Source: a virus
Taxonomy: Duplodnaviria > Heunggongvirae > Uroviricota > Caudoviricetes
Virus record (IMG/VR): IMGVR_UViG_2563366800_000008
Length of the DNA stretch: 31,111 nucleotides
Reading direction: 5' to 3' (one strand)
Positions 1 to 19,057 of the stretch are shown here, piece after piece (within the stretch, counting starts at the first letter, position 1; every line of letters starts with the position of its first letter). The notes beneath the pieces are model-generated. The model was given only the letters and a program-made list of their open reading frames with translations. It had not been told where the DNA came from and made no database searches. Made by a program: the position numbers and the translations under genes.

Positions 1-1128
1 TTATGCCGCCAGCACGCGGTTGCGTCCATCATTTTTCGCCCGATACAAAGCATCATCAACGCGTTTAAACAGTTCATCGATGCTTTCATTTCCTTCGTGA
101 TGCGCCACACCAATGCTGACGGTAAAGCGTGGTAAGCCCGAAATACTCACTTTTGCCACGCTTACGCGGATAGTTTCAGCCAGCGAAAGCGCGGTATCCA
201 GTGGGGTTCTTGGTAGCAATAAGACAAACTCTTCGCCTCCCCAACGAAACACCAAATCGCCTTTGCGAGCGCAACTTTCGAGGGTGCGGGCGAGGGCGCA
301 TAACACCTCATCACCTTTAGAATGCCCATAGAGATCGTTAATGTGTTTAAAACGATCGGTGTCGATGAGCAACAAGCTGTAATCCTGAGCGATGGCGAGA
401 TGCTGCATTTGGCCTGGTTCCGTAATGTGATAAAACTGTCGCCGATTCAGTAATCCGGTCATCGCGTCATGGTGAGCAGCATGTTCCAGCTGCTCCTCCA
501 GCCGTTTTTGCTCAGTAATATCATGCACAATACATAACATGAGCTTGTCGCCATAAATTTCAATCGGTCCGGCATAGGTCTGCACATGACGAGTCGAACC
601 ATCCGCCAGTTTATGAACAAAATTCAAAGGTTTATGACCACCGGGTAAATGCGAGATTTCATGCATGATAGGCATGACGCGACGCCCGAGCATATTTATT
701 TCCCAGGTATGTTTCTGGCACATCGTTTCATGGTTATAACCATAGAAATTGAGCGCGGCGAGGTTAGCATCGACGATTTGTCCATCTCGTGACGGGTCAA
801 TCAACAACATTGGTGCAGAGTTAGTCAGAAAAAAGCGCGCATAAAAACCTTGTTTTTTGCGCTGATAATTTGCCGAGCGACTGGCTTTTAAACCCAGCGT
901 TGCCGGCGCTTCGATACCTTCGAAAATAATCACCGGTTCTGTTTCTGTCAGCTTTCGCAAAACAAGCCGACAGCTCAATGCTGTTTCCTCTTCTTTACGC
1001 TGAACAGTGAGGATTTCGATAATATCGTGTTGGTTTTGCAGATCGGAGAGGTATTTCGGCAGTTCTTTTTGTGAGGAGACGGAATAGGGTCCGGTTCGTA
1101 GCTGACTAAACGTGAGGTCTTGCATCAA
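1..1128 (-). CDS. dgcM: Host PAS-GGDEF diguanylate cyclase; 5' end interrupted by the prophage
   Basis: 375-aa ORF with GGEEF active-site motif (RWGGEEFVLLL) and PAS-like N-terminal region; stop codon at 1-3. Reading frame stays open upstream to a TAG at 1213-1215 and encodes SLDLLTSPVWIVSPFEEQLIYANSAAKLL, which matches my recollection of the DgcM/YdaM N-terminus. No in-frame start before that; first in-window ATG is at 1123-1125 (ORF track begins at a TTG). Confidence 0.8.
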   Translation of the reverse strand: MMQDLTFSQLRTGPYSVSSQKELPKYLSDLQNQHDIIEILTVQRKEEETALSCRLVLRKLTETEPVIIFEGIEAPATLGLKASRSANYQRKKQGFYARFFLTNSAPMLLIDPSRDGQIVDANLAALNFYGYNHETMCQKHTWEINMLGRRVMPIMHEISHLPGGHKPLNFVHKLADGSTRHVQTYAGPIEIYGDKLMLCIVHDITEQKRLEEQLEHAAHHDAMTGLLNRRQFYHITEPGQMQHLAIAQDYSLLLIDTDRFKHINDLYGHSKGDEVLCALARTLESCARKGDLVFRWGGEEFVLLLPRTPLDTALSLAETIRVSVAKVSISGLPRFTVSIGVAHHEGNESIDELFKRVDDALYRAKNDGRNRVLAA

Positions 1129-1248
1129 CAGTTTCGCCGCGCTATTGGCATAAATTAACTGTTCCTCAAAGGGCGAAACGATCCAGACAGGACTGGTGAG
1201 TAAGTCCAGTGACTAGTGACAGTGATGTATGGATCAAACAGAGAACCC

Positions 1249-1288
1249 GGGAATAACCGGGAATTCATGGGAATTAACGGGAGGAAGG
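1249..1288. repeat. Four tandem 10-bp units GGGAATAACC / GGGAATTCAT / GGGAATTAAC / GGGAGGAAGG near the prophage left end
   Basis: Directly visible head-to-tail repeat with 10-bp period, about 40 bp inside the inferred terminus. Position fits transposase end-binding sites (attL). Confidence 0.5.
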
Positions 1289-1506
1289 CTTGAGTTGTGA
1301 GGCTTCGCACAACGTTAAGCTACTCGACTTGTGGAAAATCTGGCATATCGTCAATTTTGGATCATTCGATAGCGAAGCCAGTTAAGTGTCACATAGATTT
1401 GGATCGTATAGCAGTTAATTTCAAAGCGTTTAACGGGATTTAAACTCAGCTTAAAATGCCCACAGGAGGTGCGAAGGTAAAGCCAGCCAATTGAGCACTT
1501 TTGCAA

Positions 1507-2106
1507 TCAGCCAGCTTTATTTCGCGTGCTCAGCTTCGGCGCGGCTTGAATCTGTTCATTGGGATCACGTTGTTCAAAAATCTCTCTATCTGCACTGGCT
1601 TCCAAATCAGCTACCATCGGCATTAAAGCGTTCAGCCCACCTTGCATGAAAACCTTAATAACATACTGTTTTTGACGCTCTGTTAAGTTGTCGAAAAGCA
1701 TTATCCATAGGTCCCGAGCTGTTGAGCTTGGTGACGATAAGGCTGAGTCAGGTATAACTGAGCGCTCTTCTACCCCCAAGAATTTCTTTGTTTCTTCTGG
1801 CAAGACCGATACATGATATTCATATGCTTTCGATTTAGCCTTCTTACGTTTCAACTTAGGATTATTACTCACAAGTTGTTCCAGTTTCCGCCGGACATTC
1901 GGCGCTCCACTGGGGAAACCTGGTAGACCAATACAATCCTGAACTGACACCCATTCACTAAAATCAACCATATCATTCACCGTACTTTTCTGTGTTATTG
2001 AAAAATACATCTGGTACTTTTTTGTGATTAACCACGGAAAATCAAGTAACGAATTGATTTTAAATAAAATATCATGGTTAACCTCATCAACCATAAAAGT
2101 ACGCAA
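1507..2106 (-). CDS. c: Mu c-type repressor (winged-helix DNA-binding)
   Basis: 199-aa ORF transcribed away from the early operon, at the left end as in Mu. Segment GGLNALMPMV resembles the Mu repressor as I recall it. ORF-track start is a TTG at 2104-2106; first ATG is at 2092-2094, so the true start is uncertain. Confidence 0.7.
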   Translation of the reverse strand: MRTFMVDEVNHDILFKINSLLDFPWLITKKYQMYFSITQKSTVNDMVDFSEWVSVQDCIGLPGFPSGAPNVRRKLEQLVSNNPKLKRKKAKSKAYEYHVSVLPEETKKFLGVEERSVIPDSALSSPSSTARDLWIMLFDNLTERQKQYVIKVFMQGGLNALMPMVADLEASADREIFEQRDPNEQIQAAPKLSTRNKAG

Positions 2107-2200: not shown

Positions 2201-2437
2201 ATGATGACCAAAAGCCAAGACTGGCACCCGGAAGACATCAAAGCAGCGATTAGGAAACGTGGGATGACTACCAGTCAGCTCTCCAGAAGCAACGGATTAG
2301 CGGAATCAACATTACGAAATGTATTCCGCCACCACTGGCCGAAAGGGGAAAAAATTATTGCTGAGTTTCTGGGGCTTACCCCCAGAGATATTTGGCCCTC
2401 ACGTTATGAAGCTGTATCAGTCAAAGAGGTTGCATAA
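2201..2437 (+). CDS. ner: Ner-like DNA-binding transcriptional regulator
   Basis: 78-aa ORF; HHWPKGEKIIAEFLGLTPRDIWPSRY resembles Mu Ner. AAGGA Shine-Dalgarno 7 nt upstream. Stop overlaps the transposase start (TAATG). Confidence 0.85.
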   Translation: MMTKSQDWHPEDIKAAIRKRGMTTSQLSRSNGLAESTLRNVFRHHWPKGEKIIAEFLGLTPRDIWPSRYEAVSVKEVA

Positions 2438-4419
2438 TGGATTTCTGGGTTACCGCAAAAGAATGCGTAGGAATTTGTTCTTTTCCTAATGCAGAAAAGA
2501 ACGTCAGAAAACATTTGGAGTCTTTTGTCAGTGGACGTAGTGAACTACGCCGTAAACGTGCTGGCACCAAAGCATTCGAATACCACATATCGGTGTTGCC
2601 ACCTGAAGTCCGCGCTGAACTGCTGGCCGCACGTGGCCTGATTGAAACATCATCCGGGCTGATTACATTGCCACAGGAGCCTGAGCGCGTGGCGGCTGAC
2701 GATCTGGAACGCCAGCGACTGTGGTCTGCATGGGAGAAAGCTACCGGCGAGCAGCGTCTGCATGCAGAACGCCGGACTAAAGCTGCCGCGCTGGTGGCGG
2801 AACTGATGGCTTCCGGCATCGGCAATCGTAAGGCGATCACGCTGGCAGCAAAACAGCTGCAAATCAGTGAAGGTACGCTGCGCAATCTTTACTACAAAGT
2901 CAAAGACCATAGTCCTGACCTCTGGGGTCCGGTACTGCTTGACCGCCGTGTGCGTGAAAAACGTCAGACTGGCCGGACTGCCGATATCTCTGAAGATGCC
3001 TGGCAGTTCTTCCTGGGCGATTATCTGCGAAACGAAGCGCCGTTCTTCTCCAAAAGCTATGAGCGCCTTGAAAAGGCGGCAGATGCTCATGGCTGGATTA
3101 TTCCCGCTGAGCGCACTCTGCGCCGCAAGCTAGAACGTGAAGTTGATCCGCGTATCGTCGTTGCCACCCGTGAGGGCGAGAACGCGCTGGCGCAGATGTA
3201 TCCGTCGCAGCAGCGCACCGTGGCATATCTTCATGCGATGGAGTGGATCAATGGCGACGGTTACCAGCACAACGTGTTTGTCCGTTGGTTTAACGGCGAC
3301 ATCATCCGTCCTAAAACGTGGTTCTGGCAGGATGTCCACAGTCGCAAAATTATTGGCTGGCGTGCTGATTTGTCGGAGAACAGTGACAGCATCCGTTTAT
3401 CCCTGATGGATACCATCCGCGCTTACGGTAAGCCTAAACATGTGACCATCGATAACACCCGCGCTGCTGCAAATAAATGGCTGTCCGGTGGCGTTCCTAA
3501 CCGTTACCGCTTCAAAGTCAAACCTGATGACCCGATGGGGATCATCCCTCTGCTGGGAATGAAGCTGCACTGGACGGGGGTGATTGGCGGTAAGGGCTGG
3601 GGACAGGCAAAGCCCGTTGAACGTGCCTTCGGCGTGGGCGGTCTGGGCGAATATATCGACAAACATCCTGCGCTGGCTGGAGCATTTGCCGGTGAAAACG
3701 TCAGCTCCAAGCCAGAGAACTACGGCAGCCTGGCGGTGGATGTGGATACATTCCTGGAAACCATCAGCGAAGGTGTCGCCATGTTCAACGCGAAGGCCGG
3801 GCGCGAGACCGAGATGTGCCGGGGGGAACTGTCCTTCGACCAGGCGTTTGAGCGCAGCTACAGCCAGTCAGTCATCACCCGTATGACCGAAGAGCAAATT
3901 CGTCAACTGATGCTGCCTGCGGAAGCTGTACGCGTGAAGACTACAGGCGAATTTACGATGGAGTGCGGGGGCTCGTTATTTGGCCGTAAGAATACTTACT
4001 GGAGTGAACAGCTCGTCAGCCACCGCTCGCGCAAAATCACCGTCCGGTTTGATCCAAGGAACCTGCACGGAGAAGTCGCCTGTTATGACCTCGACGGCCG
4101 TTTCCTTTGCATGGCTGAGTGTCGTGCCGCCGTGGCCTTTGGCGATACCGAGGCTGGACGTGAACACAACCGTGCACGCCGCGAGATGATCAAGAGTACG
4201 AAGAAAGCGACTAAGGCTCTGAACCGTATGACGGCGATTGAGGTGAATGACCTGCTGCCGAAGACTGAGCATGCAGAACTGCCGGAGCGGCATGTGGTGG
4301 AGCGTGTATTTACCCTGGGCAACACCGTCAAGCGCGTGGAGGACATACAGGAAACGCAGAGCGAAAACGACGTTATTTTCCAGCAGTTTGTTAATAAGGC
4401 TAAACAGGCACGGAAATAA
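2437..4419 (+). CDS. A: MuA-type DDE transposase
   Basis: 660-aa ORF directly after ner. N-terminal region resembles the repressor DNA-binding domain, as in MuA/c. Size and position match MuA. Confidence 0.9.
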   Translation: MDFWVTAKECVGICSFPNAEKNVRKHLESFVSGRSELRRKRAGTKAFEYHISVLPPEVRAELLAARGLIETSSGLITLPQEPERVAADDLERQRLWSAWEKATGEQRLHAERRTKAAALVAELMASGIGNRKAITLAAKQLQISEGTLRNLYYKVKDHSPDLWGPVLLDRRVREKRQTGRTADISEDAWQFFLGDYLRNEAPFFSKSYERLEKAADAHGWIIPAERTLRRKLEREVDPRIVVATREGENALAQMYPSQQRTVAYLHAMEWINGDGYQHNVFVRWFNGDIIRPKTWFWQDVHSRKIIGWRADLSENSDSIRLSLMDTIRAYGKPKHVTIDNTRAAANKWLSGGVPNRYRFKVKPDDPMGIIPLLGMKLHWTGVIGGKGWGQAKPVERAFGVGGLGEYIDKHPALAGAFAGENVSSKPENYGSLAVDVDTFLETISEGVAMFNAKAGRETEMCRGELSFDQAFERSYSQSVITRMTEEQIRQLMLPAEAVRVKTTGEFTMECGGSLFGRKNTYWSEQLVSHRSRKITVRFDPRNLHGEVACYDLDGRFLCMAECRAAVAFGDTEAGREHNRARREMIKSTKKATKALNRMTAIEVNDLLPKTEHAELPERHVVERVFTLGNTVKRVEDIQETQSENDVIFQQFVNKAKQARK

Positions 4420-4514: not shown

Positions 4515-5453
4515 ATGACGCAAATTAACCATGATGTTGTGCGCAGTGCCATTCGTGAACTTATCGACAGCAAGACGATTTCCGGTGCAGCGCTGGCGCG
4601 TGAGACCGGTACATCAACCGCGACGGTTTCACAGTTCCTGAACGGGAAATACAAAGGTGACAATGACACCGTAGCTGCCAGCCTGAATACCTGGCTTGAA
4701 AGTCACAACGCCGCGAAAACCACGCTTCCGGTGGCCCCTGATTTCGTTGAGACACCGACCTCTCAGAAAATCCTCGCCACCCTGACGTGGGCGCAGCTGG
4801 CCGGGACGATTGTGCTGGTTTACGGCAATCCGGGCGTGGGTAAGACAAAGGCTATCCGGCAGTATGCCGCAGGCGGTAATAACGTCTGGCACATCACCGC
4901 CAGCAAATCCCGCAGCAATGAGCTGGAGACCCTGTATGAACTGGCCCTGAAAATGGGCATCAGCGATGCGCCATACCGCCGTGGTGCACTCTCTCGCCTG
5001 CTGCGCCAGCGTCTGCCGGACACGCGCGGCCTGATAGTGGTGGATGAAGCCGACTGGCTGAGTCTGGATGCGGTGGAAGAGCTGCGTATTCTCCAGGAGG
5101 AATGTGGCGTGGGGCTGGCACTGGTGGGTAACCACAAGGTCTATGACCGTCTTACCGGCGGCCAGCGCAGCGTGGATTTTGCCCGCCTGTTCTCCCGCGT
5201 GTCCAAGAAGTACGTCATCAATACCGTTTCCGCTGGTGACGTGGACAGCTTCTGCGATGCCTGGCAGGTCACCGGCGCTGACGAACGCAAGCTGCTGAAG
5301 GCTATCGCCCGACGTCCGGGGGCGCTGCGTTCTCTGTCGCACATCCTGCCGCTGGCCGGAATTTACGCTCAGGGCAAGGGTGAGACCATTGGCACGGCGC
5401 ACATCCAGTCCGCCATGCTGGAGCTGGGCCACAGCGGTATCGGAGAGGAGTGA
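4515..5453 (+). CDS. B: MuB-type AAA+ ATPase, transposition target DNA activator
   Basis: 312-aa ORF with Walker A motif GNPGVGKT and N-terminal HTH-like region; same length and position as Mu B. Confidence 0.9.
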   Translation: MTQINHDVVRSAIRELIDSKTISGAALARETGTSTATVSQFLNGKYKGDNDTVAASLNTWLESHNAAKTTLPVAPDFVETPTSQKILATLTWAQLAGTIVLVYGNPGVGKTKAIRQYAAGGNNVWHITASKSRSNELETLYELALKMGISDAPYRRGALSRLLRQRLPDTRGLIVVDEADWLSLDAVEELRILQEECGVGLALVGNHKVYDRLTGGQRSVDFARLFSRVSKKYVINTVSAGDVDSFCDAWQVTGADERKLLKAIARRPGALRSLSHILPLAGIYAQGKGETIGTAHIQSAMLELGHSGIGEE

Positions 5454-5457: not shown

Positions 5458-5697
5458 ATGATCGCCGAACGTATTGCAGAGCACATCAGCATGGCAGAAG
5501 CGGCGCAGAACTGGCTGCGTGCGCGTGGCAGTCGCGTGACTGACGTTCGGGTGTTTATGCGTCGCCCGCTGCTGGAGATTGCCTGCCCGCCGGTTGAGCT
5601 GCTTAACAGCGCAGAGCGCATTGCTGAATCACACAACGGTGGCACCCGCTCCGTCTGGGTCGCCAGTCTGGAAGGTTGCCGGATTATCTGGAGGTAA
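5458..5697 (+). CDS. Hypothetical early-region protein
   Basis: 79-aa ORF from ATG 5458 with GAGGAG 9 nt upstream; sits where Mu has kil. No family recognised. Confidence 0.5.
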   Translation: MIAERIAEHISMAEAAQNWLRARGSRVTDVRVFMRRPLLEIACPPVELLNSAERIAESHNGGTRSVWVASLEGCRIIWR

Positions 5698-5699
5698 GC

Positions 5700-5990
5700 A
5701 TGGGGTGGAGAACGGGTAAAACATGGTCCCCCGAAGAGCTTCGCATTCTTGAGCAGAGTGCAGGGAAAGTCAGTGTTATCGGGCTGGCTCAGCAACTGGG
5801 ACGTACAAAACAGTCCGTTCAGAATTGCGCTCTTCGTCTTGGACTGTCACTGCGTATTCGTACAGAGGACGAGCATGATGCGTATTTATGCCGTGAGCTT
5901 TATAAGGAGGGGCTGACCGTTGCGATCATCGCAGAAAAAATGGAAATGTCCCGTCGTCAGGTTTTTAACATCGTTTATCGCGACAGCTAA
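5700..5990 (+). CDS. Hypothetical protein with two HTH-like segments, putative DNA-binding
   Basis: 96-aa ORF from ATG 5700 with GGAGG upstream. Segments VIGLAQQLGRTKQSVQNCALRLGL and LTVAIIAEKMEMSRRQVFNIV look like helix-turn-helix motifs. Confidence 0.5.
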   Translation: MGWRTGKTWSPEELRILEQSAGKVSVIGLAQQLGRTKQSVQNCALRLGLSLRIRTEDEHDAYLCRELYKEGLTVAIIAEKMEMSRRQVFNIVYRDS

Positions 5991-6004
5991 CTTAAAGGTT
6001 TTTT

Positions 6005-6280
6005 ATGACTGAGAAACAGCAATCAATATTAATCGCTTATGCGTGGGCCAGCGGGCTGATTGAATTTGGTCAGACACTCCCGGAAGGCGCTTTACCTATC
6101 GCGAGCGCCCGTCATCACAAGCGGCTCCGGGAGGTCATAAATGTTTACGCACGCCACGGATATGCCCCTGGGCAGCTACTGGTTCCGGGGATTCCTGAAG
6201 CAGCCACCCAGAACGAAGCCGGAGTGGCTCTGACAAAGTTCTGTTTTTATGTTGAACGCGCATTACTGAATAAGGATTAA
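6005..6280 (+). CDS. Hypothetical early-region protein
   Basis: 91-aa ORF, AAGG upstream, same strand and tight packing as neighbours. No family recognised. Confidence 0.5.
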   Translation: MTEKQQSILIAYAWASGLIEFGQTLPEGALPIASARHHKRLREVINVYARHGYAPGQLLVPGIPEAATQNEAGVALTKFCFYVERALLNKD

Positions 6281-6284
6281 AACA

Positions 6285-6536
6285 ATGGCTAAACAGGTTA
6301 TCACCATTGTCATTGAGGATGGCATCGTTCAGAAAAGTGACAAATCAATTAATAACGAACTACCTGAAGGGAAACTCAATATTCAGTTTCATCTTAATAA
6401 CACAAATGATGATGGTTCATTTTCGTTTCTGGTTGCTGAAGGTCTGTCAGCTATTTTCCCGATGGCGATCCAGCAGGTCACCACGTTTGTGAAAGCAAGG
6501 GTGGAGCAGGATAACCGTAAAATAATCAAACACTGA
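6285..6536 (+). CDS. Hypothetical early-region protein
   Basis: 83-aa ORF, lower GC than neighbours, 4 bp after the previous ORF. No family recognised. Confidence 0.45.
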   Translation: MAKQVITIVIEDGIVQKSDKSINNELPEGKLNIQFHLNNTNDDGSFSFLVAEGLSAIFPMAIQQVTTFVKARVEQDNRKIIKH

Positions 6537-6543
6537 GGTTGAT

Positions 6544-7071
6544 ATGAAAGCACCTAAAAAACCACGAGCCAAGTCTGCTGCGGCAGTGGCCGTTCCGCAG
6601 TCACGTGAAGACGTGATTAACGATATCCGAAAAATTGGCGACATCACCCGTGTCATTTTGCGCCGTGAAACAGAACTGAATGACAAACTGGCCGAGCTGA
6701 CTAACGACGCCGCTCCCGGAATTGAAGCGCTCAAGAAAGAGCTGGGCCGCTTACAAACTGGCGTCCAGACGTGGTGTGAAGCCAACCGTGCAGAGCTTAC
6801 GAAAGACGGTAAGACCAAGACGGCCAACCTGACAACGGGCGAAGTTCGCTGGCGTAAGCGCCCGCCCAGCGTCACCATTCGCAAAGTTGAAGATGTTATT
6901 GCGTTACTCAAGAAATTCAGCCTGGGTAAATTTCTTCGCAATAAAGAGGAAATTAATAAAGAGGCAATTCTTGCATCACCGAATGAAGTTAAGGGAATTG
7001 CAGGGATATCCATTAAATCAGATGTTGAGGATTTTGAAATAATCCCATTTGAACAAACTGTAACTGATTAA
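6544..7071 (+). CDS. gam: Gam host-nuclease inhibitor (DNA end-binding, Ku-like)
   Basis: 175-aa ORF; segments TWCEANRAELTKDGKTKTANLTTGEVRWRKRPPSV and KSDVEDFEIIPFEQ resemble Mu Gam as recalled. Confidence 0.85.
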   Translation: MKAPKKPRAKSAAAVAVPQSREDVINDIRKIGDITRVILRRETELNDKLAELTNDAAPGIEALKKELGRLQTGVQTWCEANRAELTKDGKTKTANLTTGEVRWRKRPPSVTIRKVEDVIALLKKFSLGKFLRNKEEINKEAILASPNEVKGIAGISIKSDVEDFEIIPFEQTVTD

Positions 7072-7108
7072 TTAACTTTCTTTGATTCTCAGAATTTTAA
7101 TACGGTAT

Positions 7109-7137
7109 GCCTGCCGGGGCTTCGTGCACCCGCAGGC
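7109..7137 (+). other. GC-rich imperfect stem-loop between gam and the next ORF
   Basis: GCCTGC (7109-7114) pairs with GCAGGC (7132-7137), plus GGG/CCC inner pairs; no T-tract follows. Confidence 0.3.
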
Positions 7138-7160
7138 AACTAAATATGGAGTTTAAGCGA

Positions 7161-7817
7161 ATGACCAGGCATACGATTATCAATATCCAGCAGATACGTG
7201 ACGATATCTGCAAACGTAAAGCAATGCCGCCATTTGGCCCCGATACCAGTATTAATCGTCTTAAAACTATCAATGAGACCCAGCGCAGTTTCACTCTTGA
7301 AGTCGTGGAATTGTTGCTGGGTGAAATAGACGTCCTGTCAAAATCAGAATGGACACTGGCGGATGAACTGGTCAAGGCCCAAAAACGCATAGCTGAGCAG
7401 GAACGCACTAACACCGCCCAGGACGATCACATCAATCAGCAGGCAGACCGTATCGAATGCCTGGAAAAGAAAAACGACGATCTGGGCAAAGCTATTAGGG
7501 CCGCACTTCCATCGTTTTCACTGTCACCAGCAGCATCTGATGTTCTGGCCGAGCGCCAGCGGCAGATATCGGTTAAGGGGTACACTACACAGCAGGACGA
7601 CACATATATTGAAGGTGAGCTGGCCGCAGCGGCTATAAGTTACATAGAGCCTTTGGCGGCTGAAGAATACTGGCCTGCTGACTGGCATGATGACAGTTTC
7701 AAACCGTCAGACTATCGTCGAAATTTAGTGAAAGCATGTGCGCTTTTGATTGCAGAAATTGAGCGTATTGACCGCCAGTCGGAGGGAAATAACGATGAGC
7801 CGCGCATCCCTGATTAA
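7161..7817 (+). CDS. Hypothetical protein, coiled-coil N-terminal half and acidic C-terminal half
   Basis: ORF open from 7107; ATG 7161 has GGAG 9 nt upstream, with alternative ATGs at 7107 and 7146. Occupies the slot between gam and gemA. No family recognised. Confidence 0.5.
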   Translation: MTRHTIINIQQIRDDICKRKAMPPFGPDTSINRLKTINETQRSFTLEVVELLLGEIDVLSKSEWTLADELVKAQKRIAEQERTNTAQDDHINQQADRIECLEKKNDDLGKAIRAALPSFSLSPAASDVLAERQRQISVKGYTTQQDDTYIEGELAAAAISYIEPLAAEEYWPADWHDDSFKPSDYRRNLVKACALLIAEIERIDRQSEGNNDEPRIPD

Positions 7818-8322
7818 GTTAATCCATGTTGCCCGTCGCAATCTACAACTGGACGATGACACCTACCGCTCTGTACTGATGCGAGTGACGGGAAAGCAAA
7901 GCTGTCGTGACCTGAGAGTCGGCCAACTGGAGGATGTGCTGAAGGTACTGGAGGATAAGGGTTTCATTCGTACCCGTCCCCGTTCTCCGGCTCGCCGTCA
8001 TCGTGAGACAGATATCACCGCAAAGGTCCGCAGCATCTGGCGGCAGATGCATCTTGATGGGTTTATCCGTGATGGCAGCGATACCTCACTCGATTCGTTC
8101 GTCGCGAAGATGACTGTCAGAACCAACAAAGGTAAAGGTATCGCCAGCCTGGCATGGTGCCGTGGCGATAATCTTCTGATGGTGCTGGAAAGCCTCAAGC
8201 AATGGCACCTGAGAGAAATGACAGAGGCGCTGAGTCCGCGAGACCTGGCATTTCAGGATAATCGGGGTTATGACGCCATCAACAGCCTGTATTCCAGTAA
8301 AGTAAGAAAGGTGCGCACATGA
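7795..8322 (+). CDS. gemA: GemA-like protein (Mu gp16 family)
   Basis: N-terminus MSRASLIKLIHVARRNLQLDDDTYRSVLMRVTGKQSCRDL resembles Mu GemA. ATG at 7795; the ORF-track start at 7750 is a TTG. Confidence 0.75.
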   Translation: MSRASLIKLIHVARRNLQLDDDTYRSVLMRVTGKQSCRDLRVGQLEDVLKVLEDKGFIRTRPRSPARRHRETDITAKVRSIWRQMHLDGFIRDGSDTSLDSFVAKMTVRTNKGKGIASLAWCRGDNLLMVLESLKQWHLREMTEALSPRDLAFQDNRGYDAINSLYSSKVRKVRT

Positions 8323-8726
8323 GCGAAAAGCAGAATGACCTGTTTGGTGATATCCAGGATGACAGCATTCTGGAGCACCTGGACGATGACAGTTCGGCGG
8401 AAACTGTGCGTTTCCCTGCACTGCTGACAGAACTGAATACGCTGTTGCGTGGCGAACTGACAAAGCATGGTGTTGACCCACGAATCTCTCTGGAGCTGGT
8501 CTATGCGATTAGCTGTCAGATTGGTGGAATGCAGATTTATTTTCCACGCGGCCAGACTCTTGAGTCATTGATTCGTGATATGAAAATCTGGCGTGATTTC
8601 AATGGCAGAAACATCACAGAGTTGGTTGAGCGTTACCGTGTTACCTATAAAACGGTGTATAAAGCAATCCGGAGAATGCGAAAGTTAGAGCAAGGTAAGA
8701 GGCAGCTCTCATTTAATATGGAGTGA
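8319..8726 (+). CDS. mor: Mor/C-family transcriptional activator
   Basis: 135-aa ORF; DLFGD..DD.IL.HLD...RFPALL.EL..LLRGEL and C-terminal HTH TVYKAIRRMR resemble Mu Mor. Start overlaps the gemA stop (ATGA). Confidence 0.85.
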   Translation: MSEKQNDLFGDIQDDSILEHLDDDSSAETVRFPALLTELNTLLRGELTKHGVDPRISLELVYAISCQIGGMQIYFPRGQTLESLIRDMKIWRDFNGRNITELVERYRVTYKTVYKAIRRMRKLEQGKRQLSFNME

Positions 8727-8730
8727 TAAT

Positions 8731-9054
8731 ATGGTTGGTGTGATTGTTATTAACATAGTTTGTATTATATGTGTTTTTTGGGTTTTCTTTGATGCTACTT
8801 CTAACAACATAGGAAGTTATGTTGTTAGAGACGGTGTGCGAAAAGGATGTCGCAGAGGCATACACCCTGTGGTTTGGGCTGCGCTGAGTATATTTATACT
8901 TCCTTTTATTTGGTATCTGATCAACAGGAAATCTTTATTGATCGCTGCGGAAGAATATCCAGTAAAGACTGATAAAAGCGTAAGTTTTATTATTCTACTT
9001 TTGTTGGTATCAGGATGGTTGCTCTATCGCTACAAAGATTATTTATTCTATTAA
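8731..9054 (+). CDS. Small hydrophobic membrane protein (about 3 predicted TM segments), AT-rich moron-like gene
   Basis: 107-aa ORF with visibly lower GC than its flanks and three hydrophobic stretches; followed by an intrinsic terminator. Occupies the position of C in Mu but is not a Mor/C homologue. Confidence 0.55.
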   Translation: MVGVIVINIVCIICVFWVFFDATSNNIGSYVVRDGVRKGCRRGIHPVVWAALSIFILPFIWYLINRKSLLIAAEEYPVKTDKSVSFIILLLLVSGWLLYRYKDYLFY

Positions 9055-9070
9055 GTTATAGCCAATACAA

Positions 9071-9086
9071 TGAAGCCGGTTAATCC
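9071..9086 (+). promoter_or_regulatory. Conserved motif TGAAGCCGGTTAATCC upstream of the lysis operon; candidate late-promoter activator site
   Basis: Identical 16-mer recurs at 17045-17060 upstream of the head gene; both copies lie 76-80 nt before the first ATG of an operon. Confidence 0.45.
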
Positions 9087-9097
9087 GGCTTTTTTTT
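9073..9097 (+). terminator. Rho-independent terminator
   Basis: Perfect inverted repeat AAGCCGG-TTAAT-CCGGCTT followed by a run of T residues. Confidence 0.7.
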
Positions 9098-9150
9098 CGT
9101 CCGGCACATGATGGAAGGGAAATCTAACCCACTTCCAAAGGTGCCGTTTT

Positions 9151-9741
9151 ATGAACAACACCCCCGATTCTCCCGCATTTCGCAATGCTCTTGCTTTCGT
9201 GCTCAGCGCAGAACGCGGATATGTCAATGACCCCACTGACCGTGGCGGTGAAACTAACTTCGGTATATCAGATAAACGCGACGGTGTTGCCGATGGCATG
9301 ACCGACGTTAATGGCGATGGCAAGCCTGATACTCGTATTCGTGATTTAACGGTTGAACAGGCCGGACAGATTTACTTCCGTGACTACTGGTATCCGGCGT
9401 ATTGCCAGTTATGGCCGGATGATATCGCCCTGTTTGTCTTTGATTCTGCCGTCCAGCATGGCGTCAAAAAGGCTGTCCAGTTGCTTCAGGAAGCTGTGGG
9501 TTTCACTGGCAAAAGCGTTGACGGTATCGCCGGTAAAAACACCCGTGCAGCCGTTGAGCGTGCTGACCCTGACTGGCTGCTGAACCGTTTGTTTCTGCAA
9601 CGTTCCCGCTATTACGCCGACATCATCAAAGCAAACTCTTCGCAGGGCAAGTTCCTCAACGGCTGGTTTAACCGCCTTGACAACCTCGCTGACGCCTGTC
9701 GTGAGATTTCCGGTGTCCGCTATTCGGTAGCCCGGAGCTGA
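9151..9741 (+). CDS. Endolysin, GH108-type lysozyme with C-terminal peptidoglycan-binding domain
   Basis: 196-aa ORF; N-terminal LSAERGYVNDPTDRGGETNFGI and C-terminal region VDGIAGKNTRAAVE fit the GH108 plus PG_binding_3 architecture as I recall it. Confidence 0.8.
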   Translation: MNNTPDSPAFRNALAFVLSAERGYVNDPTDRGGETNFGISDKRDGVADGMTDVNGDGKPDTRIRDLTVEQAGQIYFRDYWYPAYCQLWPDDIALFVFDSAVQHGVKKAVQLLQEAVGFTGKSVDGIAGKNTRAAVERADPDWLLNRLFLQRSRYYADIIKANSSQGKFLNGWFNRLDNLADACREISGVRYSVARS

Positions 9742-9742
9742 T

Positions 9743-9961
9743 ATGGGCAAGGGATGGGACGCTTCGCTGAAACAGGGACGACGTGACCGGCTGAGGCAGG
9801 AAGTTCTTCACCGAATAGCAGGTGGCCCCGTCCCCGTTCCGACAAGTTATGCAGGTCATGACGGTACACACGCCAGTTACTACATGCGCGGCTGGTCATC
9901 CGTCGATATCAGAGACATCGTCTGGCAATGCCAGCGATACAAGGAAAAACACAATGTTTAA
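9743..9961 (+). CDS. Hypothetical lysis-cassette protein
   Basis: 72-aa ORF starting 2 nt after the endolysin stop; no TM segment or lipobox seen. Confidence 0.4.
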   Translation: MGKGWDASLKQGRRDRLRQEVLHRIAGGPVPVPTSYAGHDGTHASYYMRGWSSVDIRDIVWQCQRYKEKHNV

Positions 9962-10361
9962 ATCGTTTAGCTGCGACTGGTTAAGGCTGGCACTGGTACA
10001 GGTTTTGCGCTCCGGATGGAGCATTGTCATTCTCGTCGGCCTGTCGCTGTTCATCTGTAGTTTCTCAGGCCGCCAGGCATTTATGGTCTGGTGGCTGGCA
10101 CTCTCCGGCGTGGTTCTGATCGGATTCAGTATCTTTCTTGGCAATCTTCCGTACAGGCTTCTTAAACCTGAAATGCATATCAGCCGGCATGCCCGTTTCT
10201 GGGCGTGGGTCATCTGGGTTGTAGGCGGTTTTCTTCTCATTCTGAGCCAGCTATATGCCACCCCGTTATACCTGATTCTTCTTACACCAGTGGGTGCTGC
10301 AATCGGCGTTCTTTTCTGTATGTGGGTTGAACGTAAGGGGCTTCTTGCATGGATCCAGTAA
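9954..10361 (+). CDS. Integral membrane protein (about 4 TM segments), possible lysis or holin-associated protein
   Basis: ATG 9954 with AAGGA 8 nt upstream; strongly hydrophobic throughout. The ORF-track start at 9822 is an out-of-context extension overlapping the previous gene. Confidence 0.55.
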   Translation: MFKSFSCDWLRLALVQVLRSGWSIVILVGLSLFICSFSGRQAFMVWWLALSGVVLIGFSIFLGNLPYRLLKPEMHISRHARFWAWVIWVVGGFLLILSQLYATPLYLILLTPVGAAIGVLFCMWVERKGLLAWIQ

Positions 10362-10957
10362 CCATCTCTACCGTTGCCAGCGTTCTGATGAAGGCAGGAC
10401 CGTCGTTACTGCGTACCGTGGGCGGCTGGTTCGGTGGCGACACCGCCAGAACGGCAGATTCTGTGGCGGGGATCGTTGAGAACGTCAACAGCGTCATCAA
10501 CCCGCAGGACCAGCAGCGGGTGCTTGAGCAAAAACTGGCGGCGCTGCCGCCAGAACAGTTCGTCCAGCTCCAGTCCCTGAAGGTCCAGATTGAACAATTC
10601 CAGCTTGAGCGGGACAAAGCCGTACTGGCTGACCGTCAGGCTGCCCACCATGAACAGCAGGAAACCATCCGTAACGGGGACAACGCCACGGATGAATATG
10701 TCCGTCAGACCAGACCGCTGATGGCCCGGCTGTCGCTATACAGCAGCATTGCGTATGTGATGCTGATGTCTGTGGGTCAGCAGGCTGGCGCGGTATCCGG
10801 TGCTTTTGGTCATGCCTTCTCCATGCCATCACCGGACTGGGATATCGCACTCATGCTGGCGACACCGGCGCTTGGGTATCTTGGTTTTCGTACCCTTGAC
10901 GGGTTCGCCCGGTACAGCAAATCCAGCAAACACAAAACGATGGCGGCGGGTAGATGA
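10349..10957 (+). CDS. Putative holin (3-TM holin family-like)
   Basis: 202-aa ORF with an N-terminal hydrophobic segment, central coiled coil and C-terminal hydrophobic segments; sits in the lysis cassette. Family assignment is from memory. Confidence 0.5.
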   Translation: MDPVTISTVASVLMKAGPSLLRTVGGWFGGDTARTADSVAGIVENVNSVINPQDQQRVLEQKLAALPPEQFVQLQSLKVQIEQFQLERDKAVLADRQAAHHEQQETIRNGDNATDEYVRQTRPLMARLSLYSSIAYVMLMSVGQQAGAVSGAFGHAFSMPSPDWDIALMLATPALGYLGFRTLDGFARYSKSSKHKTMAAGR

Positions 10958-11160
10958 CGGATGAACTGGACAAGGCCAGCGGCCTTGAGATGGCAGACCG
11001 TGAACGGGCATTAAATGCTCAGTTAAACAGGGTTAAAGAATCTCCTGACACGCCAGACCACTGCAACGACTGTGGTGACGAAATTGACCCGAAACGACTG
11101 GCGGCCATGCCGGATGCCGTGACCTGCATTGACTGCCAGACACTCAGGGAGACGGCATAA
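10954..11160 (+). CDS. traR: TraR/DksA-family C4 zinc-finger protein
   Basis: 68-aa ORF with CNDCGDEI...CIDCQ, the four-cysteine spacing typical of TraR/DksA zinc fingers. Confidence 0.8.
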   Translation: MTDELDKASGLEMADRERALNAQLNRVKESPDTPDHCNDCGDEIDPKRLAAMPDAVTCIDCQTLRETA

Positions 11161-11466
11161 ATGGAATGGGAAACCGTAAGAAGTAACTGGGCTGTCATCT
11201 GGGCCGGACTGATGTCCGGTATCAATATTATCCACCTGCTGCTGGTGAAAACCTATGCCCGCCGGGAAGAGATGGAGAAAGTTAACAGCCGGATGAGTGC
11301 ACTTGAAAAGGCCATCGACGGGATGCCGTCACGGCAGGAACTCCACCAGTTGCAACTGGATATGAGCAACCTGCGCGGCGAAATACGGGAGTTCTCCGGA
11401 ATGCTCCGGCAGGCCACACGTATCAGCGATCTGTTGCTGGAAAACGAACTGAAGGAAAAAAATTAA
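11161..11466 (+). CDS. Hypothetical membrane-anchored coiled-coil protein
   Basis: 101-aa ORF; N-terminal hydrophobic helix then coiled coil. Conserved in this position in Mu-like phages as far as I recall. Confidence 0.55.
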   Translation: MEWETVRSNWAVIWAGLMSGINIIHLLLVKTYARREEMEKVNSRMSALEKAIDGMPSRQELHQLQLDMSNLRGEIREFSGMLRQATRISDLLLENELKEKN

Positions 11467-11472
11467 GAGGCT

Positions 11473-11766
11473 ATGAGCATGCAAGAAATCCTCAACAGCG
11501 ACCAGCGTCTGGTCATTCTGCGCTCACTGGTGGAGTGCGGAGACAGTGCAAACGAATCCATTCTACAGACCTGCCTCCAGACCTACGGCCACCGGGTTTC
11601 CCGTGACACCGTCCGCACCCTCCTTGCGTGGCTACGTGAACAGGGACTCGTCACCCTGTCAGATGTCTCCGGGTGTTACGTCGCCGGCATCACAGGACGC
11701 GGTGAAGATGTGGCCTTTGGGCTGGCGACGGTCCCCGGCGTCAAAAAACCACGTGCGCGGGAGTGA
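11473..11766 (+). CDS. Hypothetical winged-helix-like protein
   Basis: 97-aa ORF on the late strand; no confident family assignment. Confidence 0.5.
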   Translation: MSMQEILNSDQRLVILRSLVECGDSANESILQTCLQTYGHRVSRDTVRTLLAWLREQGLVTLSDVSGCYVAGITGRGEDVAFGLATVPGVKKPRARE

Positions 11767-11768
11767 CG

Positions 11769-12143
11769 ATGGAACGGGCCAGAATACTTCAAATGTTAAT
11801 GACCTGCCGCCAGCAGGCGGAACAGTTGCGCCGCCTGTCAGGTCTGGCGGAGCGTCGGGAGTCCGGTGAAATCGGCATGTCAGCGAATGCGCTTTTTCAG
11901 GCCGCTGTGATCATTGATTCCCTTATCAGTGCAAATGAAAAAGCACTGGAAGGCATTGCCCGGTTGGACCGCTCTGAAACCCAGCTTATAGGAGAGCGCG
12001 ATCAGGTTATCGCCGTACTGGACAGCATGTATGAGGCTGTAACCGGTGCGCCCCCTGAGTGGAGCAGCGCATTTGGTTTTACGGATGCGATTAACGATGT
12101 GACAGAGCGTATTTTTGAACTGGAGAACATCTGCCATGACTAA
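11769..12143 (+). CDS. Hypothetical protein
   Basis: ORF-track start 11763 is a GTG that overlaps the previous stop; ATG at 11769 has GGAG upstream. Confidence 0.5.
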   Translation: MERARILQMLMTCRQQAEQLRRLSGLAERRESGEIGMSANALFQAAVIIDSLISANEKALEGIARLDRSETQLIGERDQVIAVLDSMYEAVTGAPPEWSSAFGFTDAINDVTERIFELENICHD

Positions 12144-12414
12144 AGCCCTTAAGCCACTGAGCAGCAGCCAGCGCGACATCATCCGGAAAATGGCCGCCAT
12201 TCTCGTCTGTGCGGAAATTGAAGTCAGAGCCATTGCACCGCAGTTTGAAAAATCGACGGGTAAAAAATACAACTCCGAATCCGCTGATTCGTATCTGAAC
12301 ACATTCCTCAACAGCAACCCGGAATACAAACGCGTCTGGAAGTTGCTGCTGAAAGACAAATCCAGCGTTGAACGTGACTTCCTTGAACGTATGAGGAGGG
12401 AGAATGGCAAGTGA
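12136..12414 (+). CDS. Hypothetical protein
   Basis: ATG 12136 inside ORF 12115..12414, overlapping the previous stop by 8 nt. Confidence 0.45.
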   Translation: MTKALKPLSSSQRDIIRKMAAILVCAEIEVRAIAPQFEKSTGKKYNSESADSYLNTFLNSNPEYKRVWKLLLKDKSSVERDFLERMRRENGK

Positions 12415-12982
12415 ACGCCAGACGCGCGGACGACCCTCAAAGATTGATTTGCTCCCGGATGCGGTCCGGGAGCAACTTCATCAGATGCTGCGCGACAAAC
12501 GACATACCCAGGAAGAAATCCGCGAAGCGATTAACGAGCTGATCAACGAATATAACCTTCCGGAGGACATGCAAATCAGCCGTACCGGTCTGAACCGCTA
12601 CGCAAGCCGCATGGAAACGATGGGGTCAAAGATTCGCGCTTCACGCGAGATGGCTGAAATATGGGCATCAAAACTTGGCTCAGCGCCGACGTCTGACGTC
12701 GGAAAATTACTGCTGGAGTTTGTCAAAACACTGGCCTTTGAAACCTCAATGGAAATGGCTGACAGCGATAAAACTGTCGAACCAAAAGCGCTGGGCCAGC
12801 TTGCGCTTGTCGCCCAGCGACTGGAAGCCGCAGCGATGGCAAGCCACAAACGCGAGAAAGAAATCCAGCAGGAGTTTGCGAAAAAAGCCGCTGCGGCCGC
12901 AGAGACCATAACCCGTTCTGCTGGTCTGTCTGCTGAGACGGCGGCTGATATCAAACGTCAGATTCTGGGGATTGCAGAATGA
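12404..12982 (+). CDS. Terminase small-subunit-like protein (Mu gp27 family)
   Basis: 192-aa ORF directly before the large terminase; N-terminus RGRPSKIDLLPDAVREQL resembles Mu gp27 as recalled. Confidence 0.7.
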   Translation: MASERQTRGRPSKIDLLPDAVREQLHQMLRDKRHTQEEIREAINELINEYNLPEDMQISRTGLNRYASRMETMGSKIRASREMAEIWASKLGSAPTSDVGKLLLEFVKTLAFETSMEMADSDKTVEPKALGQLALVAQRLEAAAMASHKREKEIQQEFAKKAAAAAETITRSAGLSAETAADIKRQILGIAE

Positions 12983-14562
12983 CGACGATGACGCCGGACA
13001 GAACACTCACCAGTCAGTCCGCTGCGGCTATCCTGTCGGGCGAGTTCGACAAAAGCCAGCTACTGCTTCCCTACCAGAAGCGGTGGATTGCCGACTCCTC
13101 TCAACTGAAGATTGCCGAGAAGTCGCGTCGTACCGGTCTGACCTGGGCGGAAGCCGCTGACGCGGCCCTCAACGGCTCAATGTCGGTGGAGGCCGGTGGG
13201 TGCGACACATTCTACGTCGGCACAACGAAAGACATGGCCCGTGAGTTTATTGATGCCTGTGCCATGTGGGCGAAAGCCTATGACCGCGCCGCGTCTGGCA
13301 TTGGTGAAGAAGTGCTGAAGGATGAAGACAAAGACATCCTGGTCTATGTCATCCAGTTCGCCAGTGGCTACAAAATCAAGGCGCTGTCGTCTAACCCGTC
13401 GAACCTGCGTGGTATGCAGGGTAACGTCATCATTGATGAGGCCGCATTCCAGGCTGACCTTGCAGCGGTACTCAAGGCGGCGCTGGCGCTGACAATGTGG
13501 GGGAATAATGTTCGCCTTATTTCCACTCACAACGGTATTGATAACCTGTTTAACACCATCATCACCGACAGCCGGGCCGGGAAAAAACGCTACTCTGTCC
13601 ATCACGTCGATATTGAAACGGCCATTGCAGAGGGGCTGTATCAGCGCATCTGTCAGGTTACAAAAAAAGTCTGGTCTGTGGAGGCCGAAGCGGAATGGCT
13701 GGCTAACCTGCTGAGCGACACGGCCACAGAGGAAGATGCCCGCGAGGAATACTACTGCGAGCCGAAGAACGGCGGTGGCGTCTATATCGCACGTTCCCTG
13801 CGCGAACGTGCGGCCAGAGGTCCGACCGTTGTCCTGCGCTTCACCGGTACGGCTGATTTTAACGCGATGCCGGACGGACTGCGCCGTGTGGAAATGCAGG
13901 AATGGCTGGAGACGGTCGTACTACCCGAACTGGAGAAGCTGCCGCAGAACCTGCGCCACTGTCTGGGGGAGGACTTTGCGCGTAATGGTGACCTGACCGT
14001 GTTTGCACCGGTGACAGTCAACGATGACACGACGCGCAACGTCCCGTTCCTGGTGGAACTCAGCAATGTGCCATTTAAACAGCAGGAGCAGGCGCTGTTT
14101 TATATCTGTGACAGGCTTCCCCGCCGTGACGGCATCAAGCTCGATGCGCGGGGTAACGGTCAGTATCTGGCAGAACAGGCGGCGGAAAAATACGGTGATG
14201 AAGTTGAGCAGGTGCAGCTTTCCGTCAAATACTACCGGGAGAACATGCCACGGTTCCGTGCGGCATTCGAAGACAATGAGCTGGTACTGCCAAAGCATGA
14301 AGATGTGATCACAGACCTCGGCGCAATTCAGCTTTATCGCGGCGTACCGGGCATTGATGATGCACGAACTACCGGCACCGATGGCCGCAAGCGTCACGGT
14401 GACTCTGCTATCGCTATTTTTCTCGGTTTCCTCGCCAGTCGCGAGGACTGCCGCCGTTATGAAGTCCACAAGTTAAAGAAACCTTCCCGCCCCGATGAGC
14501 GTAATGAACACCGTCAGGTCCGCATCACACGGGGTCTTAAAAATCAGCGGGGATTACTCTGA
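12979..14562 (+). CDS. Terminase large subunit (Mu gp28-like)
   Basis: 527-aa ORF, the size and position of Mu gp28; acidic nuclease-like C-terminal half. Confidence 0.85.
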   Translation: MTTMTPDRTLTSQSAAAILSGEFDKSQLLLPYQKRWIADSSQLKIAEKSRRTGLTWAEAADAALNGSMSVEAGGCDTFYVGTTKDMAREFIDACAMWAKAYDRAASGIGEEVLKDEDKDILVYVIQFASGYKIKALSSNPSNLRGMQGNVIIDEAAFQADLAAVLKAALALTMWGNNVRLISTHNGIDNLFNTIITDSRAGKKRYSVHHVDIETAIAEGLYQRICQVTKKVWSVEAEAEWLANLLSDTATEEDAREEYYCEPKNGGGVYIARSLRERAARGPTVVLRFTGTADFNAMPDGLRRVEMQEWLETVVLPELEKLPQNLRHCLGEDFARNGDLTVFAPVTVNDDTTRNVPFLVELSNVPFKQQEQALFYICDRLPRRDGIKLDARGNGQYLAEQAAEKYGDEVEQVQLSVKYYRENMPRFRAAFEDNELVLPKHEDVITDLGAIQLYRGVPGIDDARTTGTDGRKRHGDSAIAIFLGFLASREDCRRYEVHKLKKPSRPDERNEHRQVRITRGLKNQRGLL

Positions 14563-16130
14563 TGTTTAAACAACTAACCGGAGCCGTTCGCCGGCTGCTC
14601 AGTCCTGCCACGGGAGAAGTTGTCACCGTGAACAAGGATGAGCTGAAGCAGACGCAATCCGCAGCGGCGGTAATGAGTGTACGTTCCCCCTCGGCAGGTA
14701 TCAGCGTTGCCAGTACGCTGAGTCCCGGCAGGCTTGCGGGGATCTTACGTAATGCAGCCGATGGTCATGCCCGTGATTTCTTCATTATGGCGGAGGAACT
14801 GGAGGAACGTGACCTCCACTACGCCAGCGTTTTACGTACACGCAAGCTGACGGTTTCCGGGATTGAACCTTCAGTGGAGGCCGGGAGCGATTCCCCGCGG
14901 GATGTGGAAATCGCAGATGATATCCGTAACCTCATGGCGCAACCGCAGGTTCCCGAACTGCTGTTCGATTTGCTGGACGGGCTTGGTAAAGGCGTTGGTG
15001 TCTGCGAAATCCTCTGGAATACCAGCACCACACTCTGGAAACCCCGCGATTATGAATGGGTAGATCCACGTTTTCTGAAACCTGACCGGGAAACGCTGCG
15101 TGATTTCAGACTACTGACGGACAGGAACCCCATCGATGGTGAGCCATTGTCACCGGGGAAATTTATCGTCCATAAGCCCCGCCTGAAATCCGGTCTGCCC
15201 TTGCGTAACGGTCTGGCGCGTCTGGTGGCCGTCATGTATATGCTCAAGTCCTACACAGTCCGGGACTGGTGGGCGTTTGCTGAAAAATTTGGCATCCCGA
15301 TTGTGGTGGGTAAATACGGCAACAACGCCAGCCCGGAACAAATCCAGACATTGCTGGATGCGATTGCATCACTGGCATCAGATGCCGGCTGCGCAATCCC
15401 CGACTCGATGAAACTGGAGATGCAGGAAGCGGCGAGCCGTAACAGCGGTGGCACTCTCTTTAAAGAGATGGCCGAATGGTGTGACGCGCAGATTAGTAAG
15501 GCCGTACTGGGGCAGACCATGACCACGGATGACGGCAGTTCACGTGCTCAGGCGGAAGTCCACAATGGTGTGCGTATGGACATCGCCAAATGGGATGCCT
15601 GGCAGTTATCCAACACGCTGTCTGAATTCCTTGTTCGTCCCTATGTGGATATGAATTACGGACCACAGGAGCATTACCCCCGCGTCGTTCTGCGCATCAG
15701 CAAACCGGAAGATCTTAAGGTTCTGGTGGATGCACTGTCGCCGCTGATTGACCGGGGGATGGAAGTTCAGATGTCAGAGATCCGTGACAAATTCGGGCTG
15801 TCTGAACCGGAGAAAGGCGCAAAAATTCTGACACCAACGGCGCAAATGACTAACCCACTACCGGCCATGAACCGTGAGCAGACTGCGCTTAACCGCAGCC
15901 AGCCTGACGTTCTTGATATGATGGTGGATGAAGCGATGAATGACTGGCAGCGTACCGGCGATGCGTTCACCAGTCCGGTGCTTGAGCTGGCAAAGAAATC
16001 TGACAGCTTTGAATCTTTTCTTGCTGGCCTGCCGGCGCTTCAGAAAGAACTTGATGCGGATGAGTTTGCGACGCAGCTGGCGATGCTCTGTTTTAAAGCC
16101 CGGTCGCTGGGAGATGTAAACGATGGCTAA
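14562..16130 (+). CDS. Portal protein (Mu gp29 family)
   Basis: 522-aa ORF immediately after the terminase; size and position match the Mu portal. Confidence 0.85.
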   Translation: MFKQLTGAVRRLLSPATGEVVTVNKDELKQTQSAAAVMSVRSPSAGISVASTLSPGRLAGILRNAADGHARDFFIMAEELEERDLHYASVLRTRKLTVSGIEPSVEAGSDSPRDVEIADDIRNLMAQPQVPELLFDLLDGLGKGVGVCEILWNTSTTLWKPRDYEWVDPRFLKPDRETLRDFRLLTDRNPIDGEPLSPGKFIVHKPRLKSGLPLRNGLARLVAVMYMLKSYTVRDWWAFAEKFGIPIVVGKYGNNASPEQIQTLLDAIASLASDAGCAIPDSMKLEMQEAASRNSGGTLFKEMAEWCDAQISKAVLGQTMTTDDGSSRAQAEVHNGVRMDIAKWDAWQLSNTLSEFLVRPYVDMNYGPQEHYPRVVLRISKPEDLKVLVDALSPLIDRGMEVQMSEIRDKFGLSEPEKGAKILTPTAQMTNPLPAMNREQTALNRSQPDVLDMMVDEAMNDWQRTGDAFTSPVLELAKKSDSFESFLAGLPALQKELDADEFATQLAMLCFKARSLGDVNDG

Positions 16131-16917: not shown

Positions 16918-16958
16918 AAACCATCCCACAACGCGCGTGGCGGCATTAACGATTATTA

Positions 16959-17060
16959 CGTCATGACGGCACGTGAAAAAATCGTTAAACGCGCCACAGC
17001 GTTTTTAAACGTGTTTTAAACGCGGTTTCATGCCGCGTTTACAGTGAAGCCGGTTAATCC
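16959..17060 (+). promoter_or_regulatory. Head-operon upstream regulatory array: palindromes, 9-mer repeats and the shared 16-mer
   Basis: Palindrome CGTCATGACG (16959-16968), CACGTG (16970-16975), three direct TTAAACGYG copies (16985, 17005, 17016) and one inverted copy forming a 9-bp stem (17017-17041), then TGAAGCCGGTTAATCC (17045-17060), 61 nt before the protease/scaffold ATG. Confidence 0.5.
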
Positions 17061-17120
17061 ACCTGCATCCCCGTTCCCCCCCACACTGTCCGGAAGTAAA
17101 CAACGTGACCGGACAACACC

Positions 17121-18077: not shown

Positions 18078-18080
18078 TTC

Positions 18081-18974: not shown

Positions 18975-19008
18975 CGTCATTACGTAAAAAATCACGTAAT
19001 GCCGGATT

Positions 19009-19029: not shown

Positions 19030-19057
19030 TAAACCCAACCTGAATGAGGTTTAAAAA

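Follow-up and report, generated by a model that had tools for sequence, protein, structure and literature searches.

Genes and features of the window

The window, a stretch of 31,111 nucleotides, begins with most of a host diguanylate cyclase gene, dgcM (ydaM), on the minus strand and continues into the left end of a Mu-like prophage, whose genes fill the rest of it. The features are given below with their coordinates, strand and the evidence for each.

1..1209, minus strand: dgcM (ydaM) remnant, codons 9–410 plus the stop codon (stop at 3..1), containing the second PAS fold and the GGDEF domain (100% K-12 identity; Pfam PAS_4/PAS_9 and GGDEF)
1205..1209: left copy of the 5-bp target-site duplication, TCCAG (once in K-12, at both prophage ends in the source scaffold)
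1210..1506: prophage left end (attL region), beginning 5'-TGACTAGTGACAGTGATG (TGACTAG...); the same terminus is found at about 17 host sequences
1213..1215, minus strand: in-frame TAG of phage origin, closing the dgcM frame ahead of codon 9 (translation)
1507..2094, minus strand: homologue of the Mu c-type repressor (Pfam HTH_Tnp_Mu_1, E 2.8e-8), at the left end and divergent from ner and A as in Mu
2201..2437, plus strand: Ner-like early regulator (Pfam HTH_35, E 8.6e-31)
2437..4419, plus strand: MuA-type DDE transposase, 660 aa (Pfam HTH_Tnp_Mu_1, HTH_Tnp_Mu_2, DDE_2 and Mu-transpos_C)
4515..5453, plus strand: MuB-type AAA+ target-DNA activator (Pfam Phage-MuB_C and AAA_22)
5458..31111, plus strand: remaining prophage in the window (RefSeq annotation of the ECONIH4 copy, Pfam, ORFs), with the parts that follow
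Early and regulatory genes, plus strand: kil; gam, 6544–7071; gemA, 7795–8322; mor, 8319–8726 (ECONIH4 RefSeq annotation, Pfam, ORFs)
9151–9741, plus strand: lysis, GH108 endolysin
Head genes, plus strand: terminase, 12979–14562; DUF935 portal, 14562–16130; protease; gpT major head protein, 18081–18974
Tail genes, plus strand: sheath, 21422–22900; tube; tape measure, 23752–25671
27002–30716, plus strand: baseplate, homologues of Mu gp44–48
From about 30716, plus strand: start of a tail-fibre gene, cut off by the window end
31018..31111: left arm of an inverted repeat (at least 95 nt) flanking the invertible tail-fibre segment (scaffold comparison)

Annotation was transferred from the prophage copy in the complete genome ECONIH4 with a shift of +1063; the two copies differ at 3 of 29,902 bases. 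The transposase matches the Mu transpososome chain 4FCY_A with an E value of 1.5e-204. RefSeq places its start at an internal ATG (635 aa, window 2515), and the 660-aa reading frame from 2437 aligns to MuA from residue 1; the longer protein, with an ATG that overlaps the stop codon of ner, is probably the true one. The repressor has no relative of solved structure at E ≤ 0.01, and its gene and the dgcM remnant share a strand. Several motifs containing TGGATC within 1210..1506 may be transposase-binding sites.

The dgcM remnant and the left junction

The minus-strand GGDEF reading frame remains open above its listed TTG/ATG start (1128/1125), reading ...SLDLLTSPVWIVSPFEEQLIYANSAAKLL before it ends at the TAG at 1213–1215; the first-pass annotation had described this extension, which contains no start codon, and it is plainly seen in the translation. 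On the minus strand, bases 1–1209 are identical to the last 1209 nt of K-12 dgcM (1209/1209 nt), which settles the gene identity proposed earlier from the encoded N terminus, with one correction: the remnant lacks exactly eight N-terminal residues, MITHNFNT, rather than about seven. In K-12, the sequence past ...GTAAGTCCAG runs on as GGTATTGAAGTTGTGCGTAATCAT, the reverse complement of ATG ATT ACG CAC AAC TTC AAT ACC. The first host codon in the remnant is Leu9 (CTG, 1209–1207), the TCA and TAG that precede it being phage sequence, and the insertion point is therefore between dgcM codons 8 and 9.

When bases 1–1600 were compared by megablast with 5,426 complete E. coli genomes, dgcM was matched in 5,392. 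The best matches, including K-12 MG1655, are identical over exactly 1–1209 and end at 1209. None of the genomes covers the 1–1600 query past 1209, and the insertion is shared by none of them; alignment to the uninterrupted K-12 gene likewise shows no collinearity beyond this base. The junction, previously placed at about 1210 with a TG start on the phage side, lies exactly between 1209 and 1210, with TG at 1210–1211, and the phage sequence starts at this same base in three complete genomes. The break is a deterministic one in the sequence, backed by a second junction described below, and does not depend on a statistical signal. On the other side of the remnant, smrA and abgR adjoin dgcM in their native order in the source scaffold (locus L021).

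Many short Logan contigs (L036–L045) also stop within 3 nt of dgcM codon 9 and give the same 402-aa partial product. Having no phage sequence, they look like contig-edge artefacts and are uninformative about further lysogens.

The right junction and the target-site duplication

The first-pass annotation had proposed looking for a second junction beyond the window. Looking up the exact protein sequences of the repressor and the gp48 homologue led to the scaffold KE137202.1 (GCA_000408625.1), which the window matches exactly wherever the two overlap (1–12094 with L021 and 20126–31111 with L031). In this scaffold, the right phage end (...GGCGCGCGGCA) lies ~31.7 kb beyond the left end, downstream of the Gin-type recombinase gene, and the junction reads ...GTGTCGCGTTTTGATTGGCGCGCGGCA-TCCAG-GGTATTGAAGTTGTGCGTAATCAT-TGAGATCC...; other extracts of the L031 junction read ...GATTGGCGCGCGGCA-TCCAG-GGTATTGAAGTTGTGCGTAATCAT and ...GGCGCGCGGCA-TCCAG-GGTATTGAAG... 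Beyond this second TCCAG come the eight missing dgcM codons, the upstream and promoter region of dgcM, and then ynaN, zntB, dbpA, ttcA and the Rac integrase, in K-12 order. The right flank has 0 mismatches to K-12 in 1505 nt and the left flank has 2 in 2709 nt. TCCAG is present as a single copy at the empty K-12 site and as two copies in KE137202.1, one per prophage end. Because the second TCCAG copy, the eight missing codons and the native flanks are all found at the right end, the insertion is a simple one, with 5 bp of the target duplicated and no rearrangement. This also amends the earlier claim that the promoter and start codon had been removed. The gene body is indeed cut off from both, and neither is deleted; both now lie some 31.7 kb away, at the opposite end of the prophage.

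KE137202.1 is a draft scaffold whose prophage sequence is interrupted by a 190-N gap, a circumstance that could favor reading the junction as an assembly or scaffolding artefact in which a prophage contig was chimerically joined to dgcM. Both junctions, however, lie in gap-free sequence, and a mis-join would not yield a matching 5-bp duplication that is single copy at the empty site, together with host flanks that are exactly adjacent in K-12. Moreover, about 17 other insertions share this exact terminal base of the phage. We regard an artefact as wholly improbable.

The window ends one base before the gap, which makes the completeness of this prophage copy putative. The two arms of the inverted repeat that flanks the invertible tail-fibre segment (L031 10893–10987 and 12013–12107) are 99%-complementary, and the Gin-type recombinase gene is adjacent; this repeat is the probable cause of the gap in the assembly. 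This gin-like serine recombinase gene (L031 12169–12788) is the last gene of the prophage. The prophage has no com/mom, because the gin stop codon lies only 65 bp from the right end. In pattern scans of a genome-contig and a viral-contig collection, from both of which the source strain is absent, neither the left junction nor the predicted right junction had a match.

Phage ends, insertion sites and mobility

The segment from 1210 to 6000 is 100% identical in the three complete genomes ECONIH4, CAVP776 and EC09. In each the match starts exactly at 1210, and the sequence to its left is unrelated host DNA (a lambdoid tail-assembly gene, a DUF932 gene and the yiiE region). The element ends in 5'-TG...CA-3', with TGACTAG... 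at 1210 on the left and ...GCGCGGCA on the right; the ECONIH4 prophage ends in ...GATTGGCGCGCGGCA and has ATGGC on both sides. The same ends adjoin about 17 host sites in public E. coli assemblies, including yfaL, an aconitase gene, prfC, paaK, fimbrial genes and nhaR. Both ends were readable in five genomes, and each of the five has a perfect 5-bp duplication: TCCAG in KE137202.1, and ATGGC, GCCAC, ACGGT and CTGGC in the others. With some sites counted twice, 16 of 18 pentamers fit N-Y-(G/C)-R-N, the known target preference of Mu.

Between the two ends we found no terminal inverted repeats of 9 nt or longer, and only short motifs of the TGGATC type are shared, which is what Mu-like ends, built from separate transposase-binding sites, would be expected to show. 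Intact copies measure 32,316 bp in CAVP776 and 32,356 bp in EC09 (~32.3 kb). With only those 3 mismatches to the ECONIH4 copy, which occupies another site, the lineage has moved recently.

Gene content, TG...CA ends, 5-bp duplications and the many insertion sites together identify the element as a Mu-family transposable phage. The first-pass annotation had called it Mu-like from the sequence of the window, and the MuA, MuB, c and Ner homologues uphold that call. We propose that the prophage entered dgcM of a K-12-like E. coli by DDE transposition of the MuA/MuB type on lysogenization. The footprints of transposition are observed directly, and the chemistry is assigned by homology.

A different route to the same position would be site-specific recombination, with the 5' end of dgcM serving as an attachment site. 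There is precedent for this, in that temperate coliphages of the mEpimmI group (for example, mEp021) integrate in the 5'-terminal region of ydaM (dgcM) and disrupt the gene (PMC11893012), and in many E. coli integrase-type prophages occupy a site just about 6 codons away from the present one. Yet the prophage annotations examined contain no integrase gene and do contain the MuA/MuB pair; the same phage sits at about 17 unrelated sites; and the dgcM junction differs from the mEpimmI core. Moreover, the phage or a relative (at least 80% identity) occurs in just 5 of the 5,426 complete E. coli genomes, in none of them in dgcM. Targeting of dgcM by an integrase thus has hardly any probability, and transposition by a Mu-family phage stands as the explanation for the insertion.

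The ECONIH4 copy (L005 147–35004) lies inside a tail-assembly gene of a lambdoid prophage and carries an IS66-family element within its own tail-fibre assembly gene. In an assembly collection, 2,151 indexed blocks contain the repressor protein, as against 5 of 5,426 complete genomes and no close deposited phage genome.

Relation to Mu and other phages

The prophage shares with Mu, D108 and SfMu the early layout in which c lies on one strand and ner, A and B on the other. Homologues of the Mu group extend to kil, gam, gemA and mor and to the head, sheath, tube and gp44–48 baseplate genes. As in that group, a Gin-type invertase adjoins an invertible tail-fibre segment, and 5'-TG...CA-3' ends, a 5-bp target duplication and many insertion sites are held in common. 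The transposase, in contrast, shares only 51% identity with the A protein of Mu, D108 or SfMu. The element is also shorter than Mu (about 32.3 kb versus 36.7 kb) and, unlike Mu, lacks com/mom.

At the megablast level, the prophage DNA resembles neither Mu nor any of the 50,697 phage genomes on deposit. The top-scoring phage genome in DNA comparison is that of Klebsiella phage Kp4866-3, which aligns at 74.6% identity to 27% of the query. The high nucleotide identity expected within the genus Muvirus is thus absent, as judged by the lack of a megablast match to Mu-group genomes and by the 51% identity of the transposase. A literature search on this prophage type returned nothing specific to it. 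Mu itself was named for insertional mutation, and an event of this kind has long been known. What is new is this allele alone, together with a phage lineage that has no sequenced free-phage representative among the 50,697 records searched. The window documents a Mu-family coliphage lineage that is apparently active and frequent in public assemblies and that has no close relative among those records, and it offers a clean natural example of a mutator phage creating a regulatory mutation.

Predicted effect on dgcM expression

dgcM is controlled by RpoS, and its product acts with PdeR and MlrA to turn on csgD (PMC5635695). In the lysogen, ~31.7 kb would separate the 402-codon gene body from its ATG, ribosome-binding site and RpoS-dependent promoter, and the phage TAG at 1213–1215 would precede that body in frame. 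What remains of dgcM at the right end codes for a fusion peptide of 28 aa, MITHNFNTLDAARQSKRDTLTTNIGSRL. With the gene body cut off from its expression signals and a phage stop codon in front of it, we infer that full-length DgcM cannot be made and that the allele would be a dgcM null or a strong hypomorph. Deletion of dgcM in K-12 strongly lowers the wrinkling of macrocolonies that depends on curli and cellulose (PMC5635695), from which we predict a matrix-poor phenotype: the lysogen would show weaker csgD expression driven by DgcM and MlrA and less curli and cellulose, if the strain is otherwise matrix-proficient. Taken as a whole, Mu-family transposition into dgcM that leaves the lysogen with a null or strongly hypomorphic allele is the reading we hold with high confidence, its functional part being the predicted one.

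A truncated protein is nonetheless conceivable. An in-frame ATG is present at dgcM codon 37 (1125), and the isolated GGDEF domain of DgcM is active in vitro (PMC5635695); translation from codon 37 could, on these grounds, yield a DgcM with residual activity. Neither a consensus scan nor RNA folding revealed a convincing intrinsic terminator between the repressor stop (1507) and the phage end, and the fold of this region is no more stable than that of shuffled sequence (z 0.30). A weak 5-bp GC hairpin followed by a U-tract is present on the minus strand at 1261–1236 (CCCGGTTATTCCCGGG then TTCTCTGTTT), 26–50 nt inside the left end, where it overlaps the GGGAAT-repeat part of the phage end. This element might act as a weak terminator for the repressor transcript.

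These observations bear on a rival account in which the insertion is real and dgcM is not silenced. Constitutive transcription of the repressor gene would read through the left end, and translation would restart at Met37 to give a truncated DgcM (residues 37–410) that is independent of RpoS and might escape control by PdeR, so that matrix regulation would be changed and not abolished. The shared minus strand of the repressor gene (1507–2094) and the remnant, the lack of a strong terminator between them, the in-frame TTG/ATG at 1128/1125 and the contact of the PAS domains with PdeR, together with the catalytic activity of the GGDEF domain by itself (PMC5635695), are all compatible with it. However, no Shine-Dalgarno-like sequence precedes the ATG at 1125 (GCGGCGAAACTGTTGATG), and the hairpin with the UUCUCUGUUU that follows it at 1261–1236 could end the repressor transcript. 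Loss of 36 residues would also take away part of the first PAS fold and may destabilize the protein. Finally, the 374-aa 'protein' is what gene callers put out for any dgcM with a broken 5' end and is no evidence of expression. We judge read-through with a restart at Met37 to be improbable, and a null or strongly hypomorphic allele remains the preferred outcome.

Should the predicted null hold, the strain would lack one of the two cyclases required for turning CsgD on and would make less curli and cellulose matrix, which would be relevant to anyone phenotyping the isolate or using it in biofilm comparisons. The case is an ordinary phage-caused mutation in one strain and leaves current understanding unchanged. 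Disruption of the dgcM 5' end by a prophage has already been published for the unrelated, integrase-type mEpimmI phages.

Other lesions of the dgcM 5' end and prophages in the curli circuit

The dgcM 5' region is uninterrupted in 5,363 of the 5,392 complete E. coli genomes that carry the gene. Among ten loci listed for the 374-aa Met37 form of DgcM, eight (L006–L010, L012, L014 and L015) have an integrase-bearing prophage that breaks dgcM at about codon 14–15. The breaks lie at about 9890–10000 in each locus (compare window 1191–1194), with in-frame stops upstream and no replacement start codon. The other two loci have +1 frameshifts in dgcM and no prophage:

L011, about 9900 (GCA_900450175.1): +1 frameshift at codon 4, ACGCCACAAC
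L013, about 9930 (GCA_016648175.1): +1 frameshift at codon 13, AGTCACTGTCTGG

The integrase-prophage break is about 6 codons from the Mu-like site and agrees with the published mEpimmI phages. Those phages resemble the present one in hitting the same gene within a few codons; they differ from it in using a tyrosine integrase and a fixed att core, in recurring in many genomes and in belonging to an unrelated phage type.

A second parallel comes from another gene of the circuit. In E. coli O157:H7, insertion of a Stx prophage in mlrA (yehV) abolishes curli and biofilm (Uhlich et al. 2013, cited in PMC6029578). The two cases are alike in that a gene of the same PdeR–DgcM–MlrA–csgD switch is interrupted, with loss of curli to be expected. 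The mlrA case differs in being a site-specific lambdoid integration that is lineage-wide and has a tested phenotype, whereas here a transposable phage has entered a partner gene in a single strain, with a predicted effect.

The first 15 codons of dgcM are hit by two unrelated phage types and by no fewer than two independent +1 frameshifts, and many broken 5' ends are found in public assemblies, which suggests an adaptive 'curli-off' route. A broader reading would be that the Mu-like insertion is no neutral accident and belongs to a recurrent, selected inactivation of the dgcM 5' end in gut E. coli, in parallel with mlrA::prophage, or alternatively that read-through gives rise to an RpoS-independent truncated cyclase; we consider this pair of proposals, taken together, unlikely.

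The 374-aa 'Met37' protein of the broken alleles is indexed in 420 collection blocks. At the GCA_016648175.1 locus, a phage-type core, ACTGTCTGG, replaces the K-12 sequence CCTGTCTGG, and the frameshift there could be the excision scar of an mEpimmI-type prophage.
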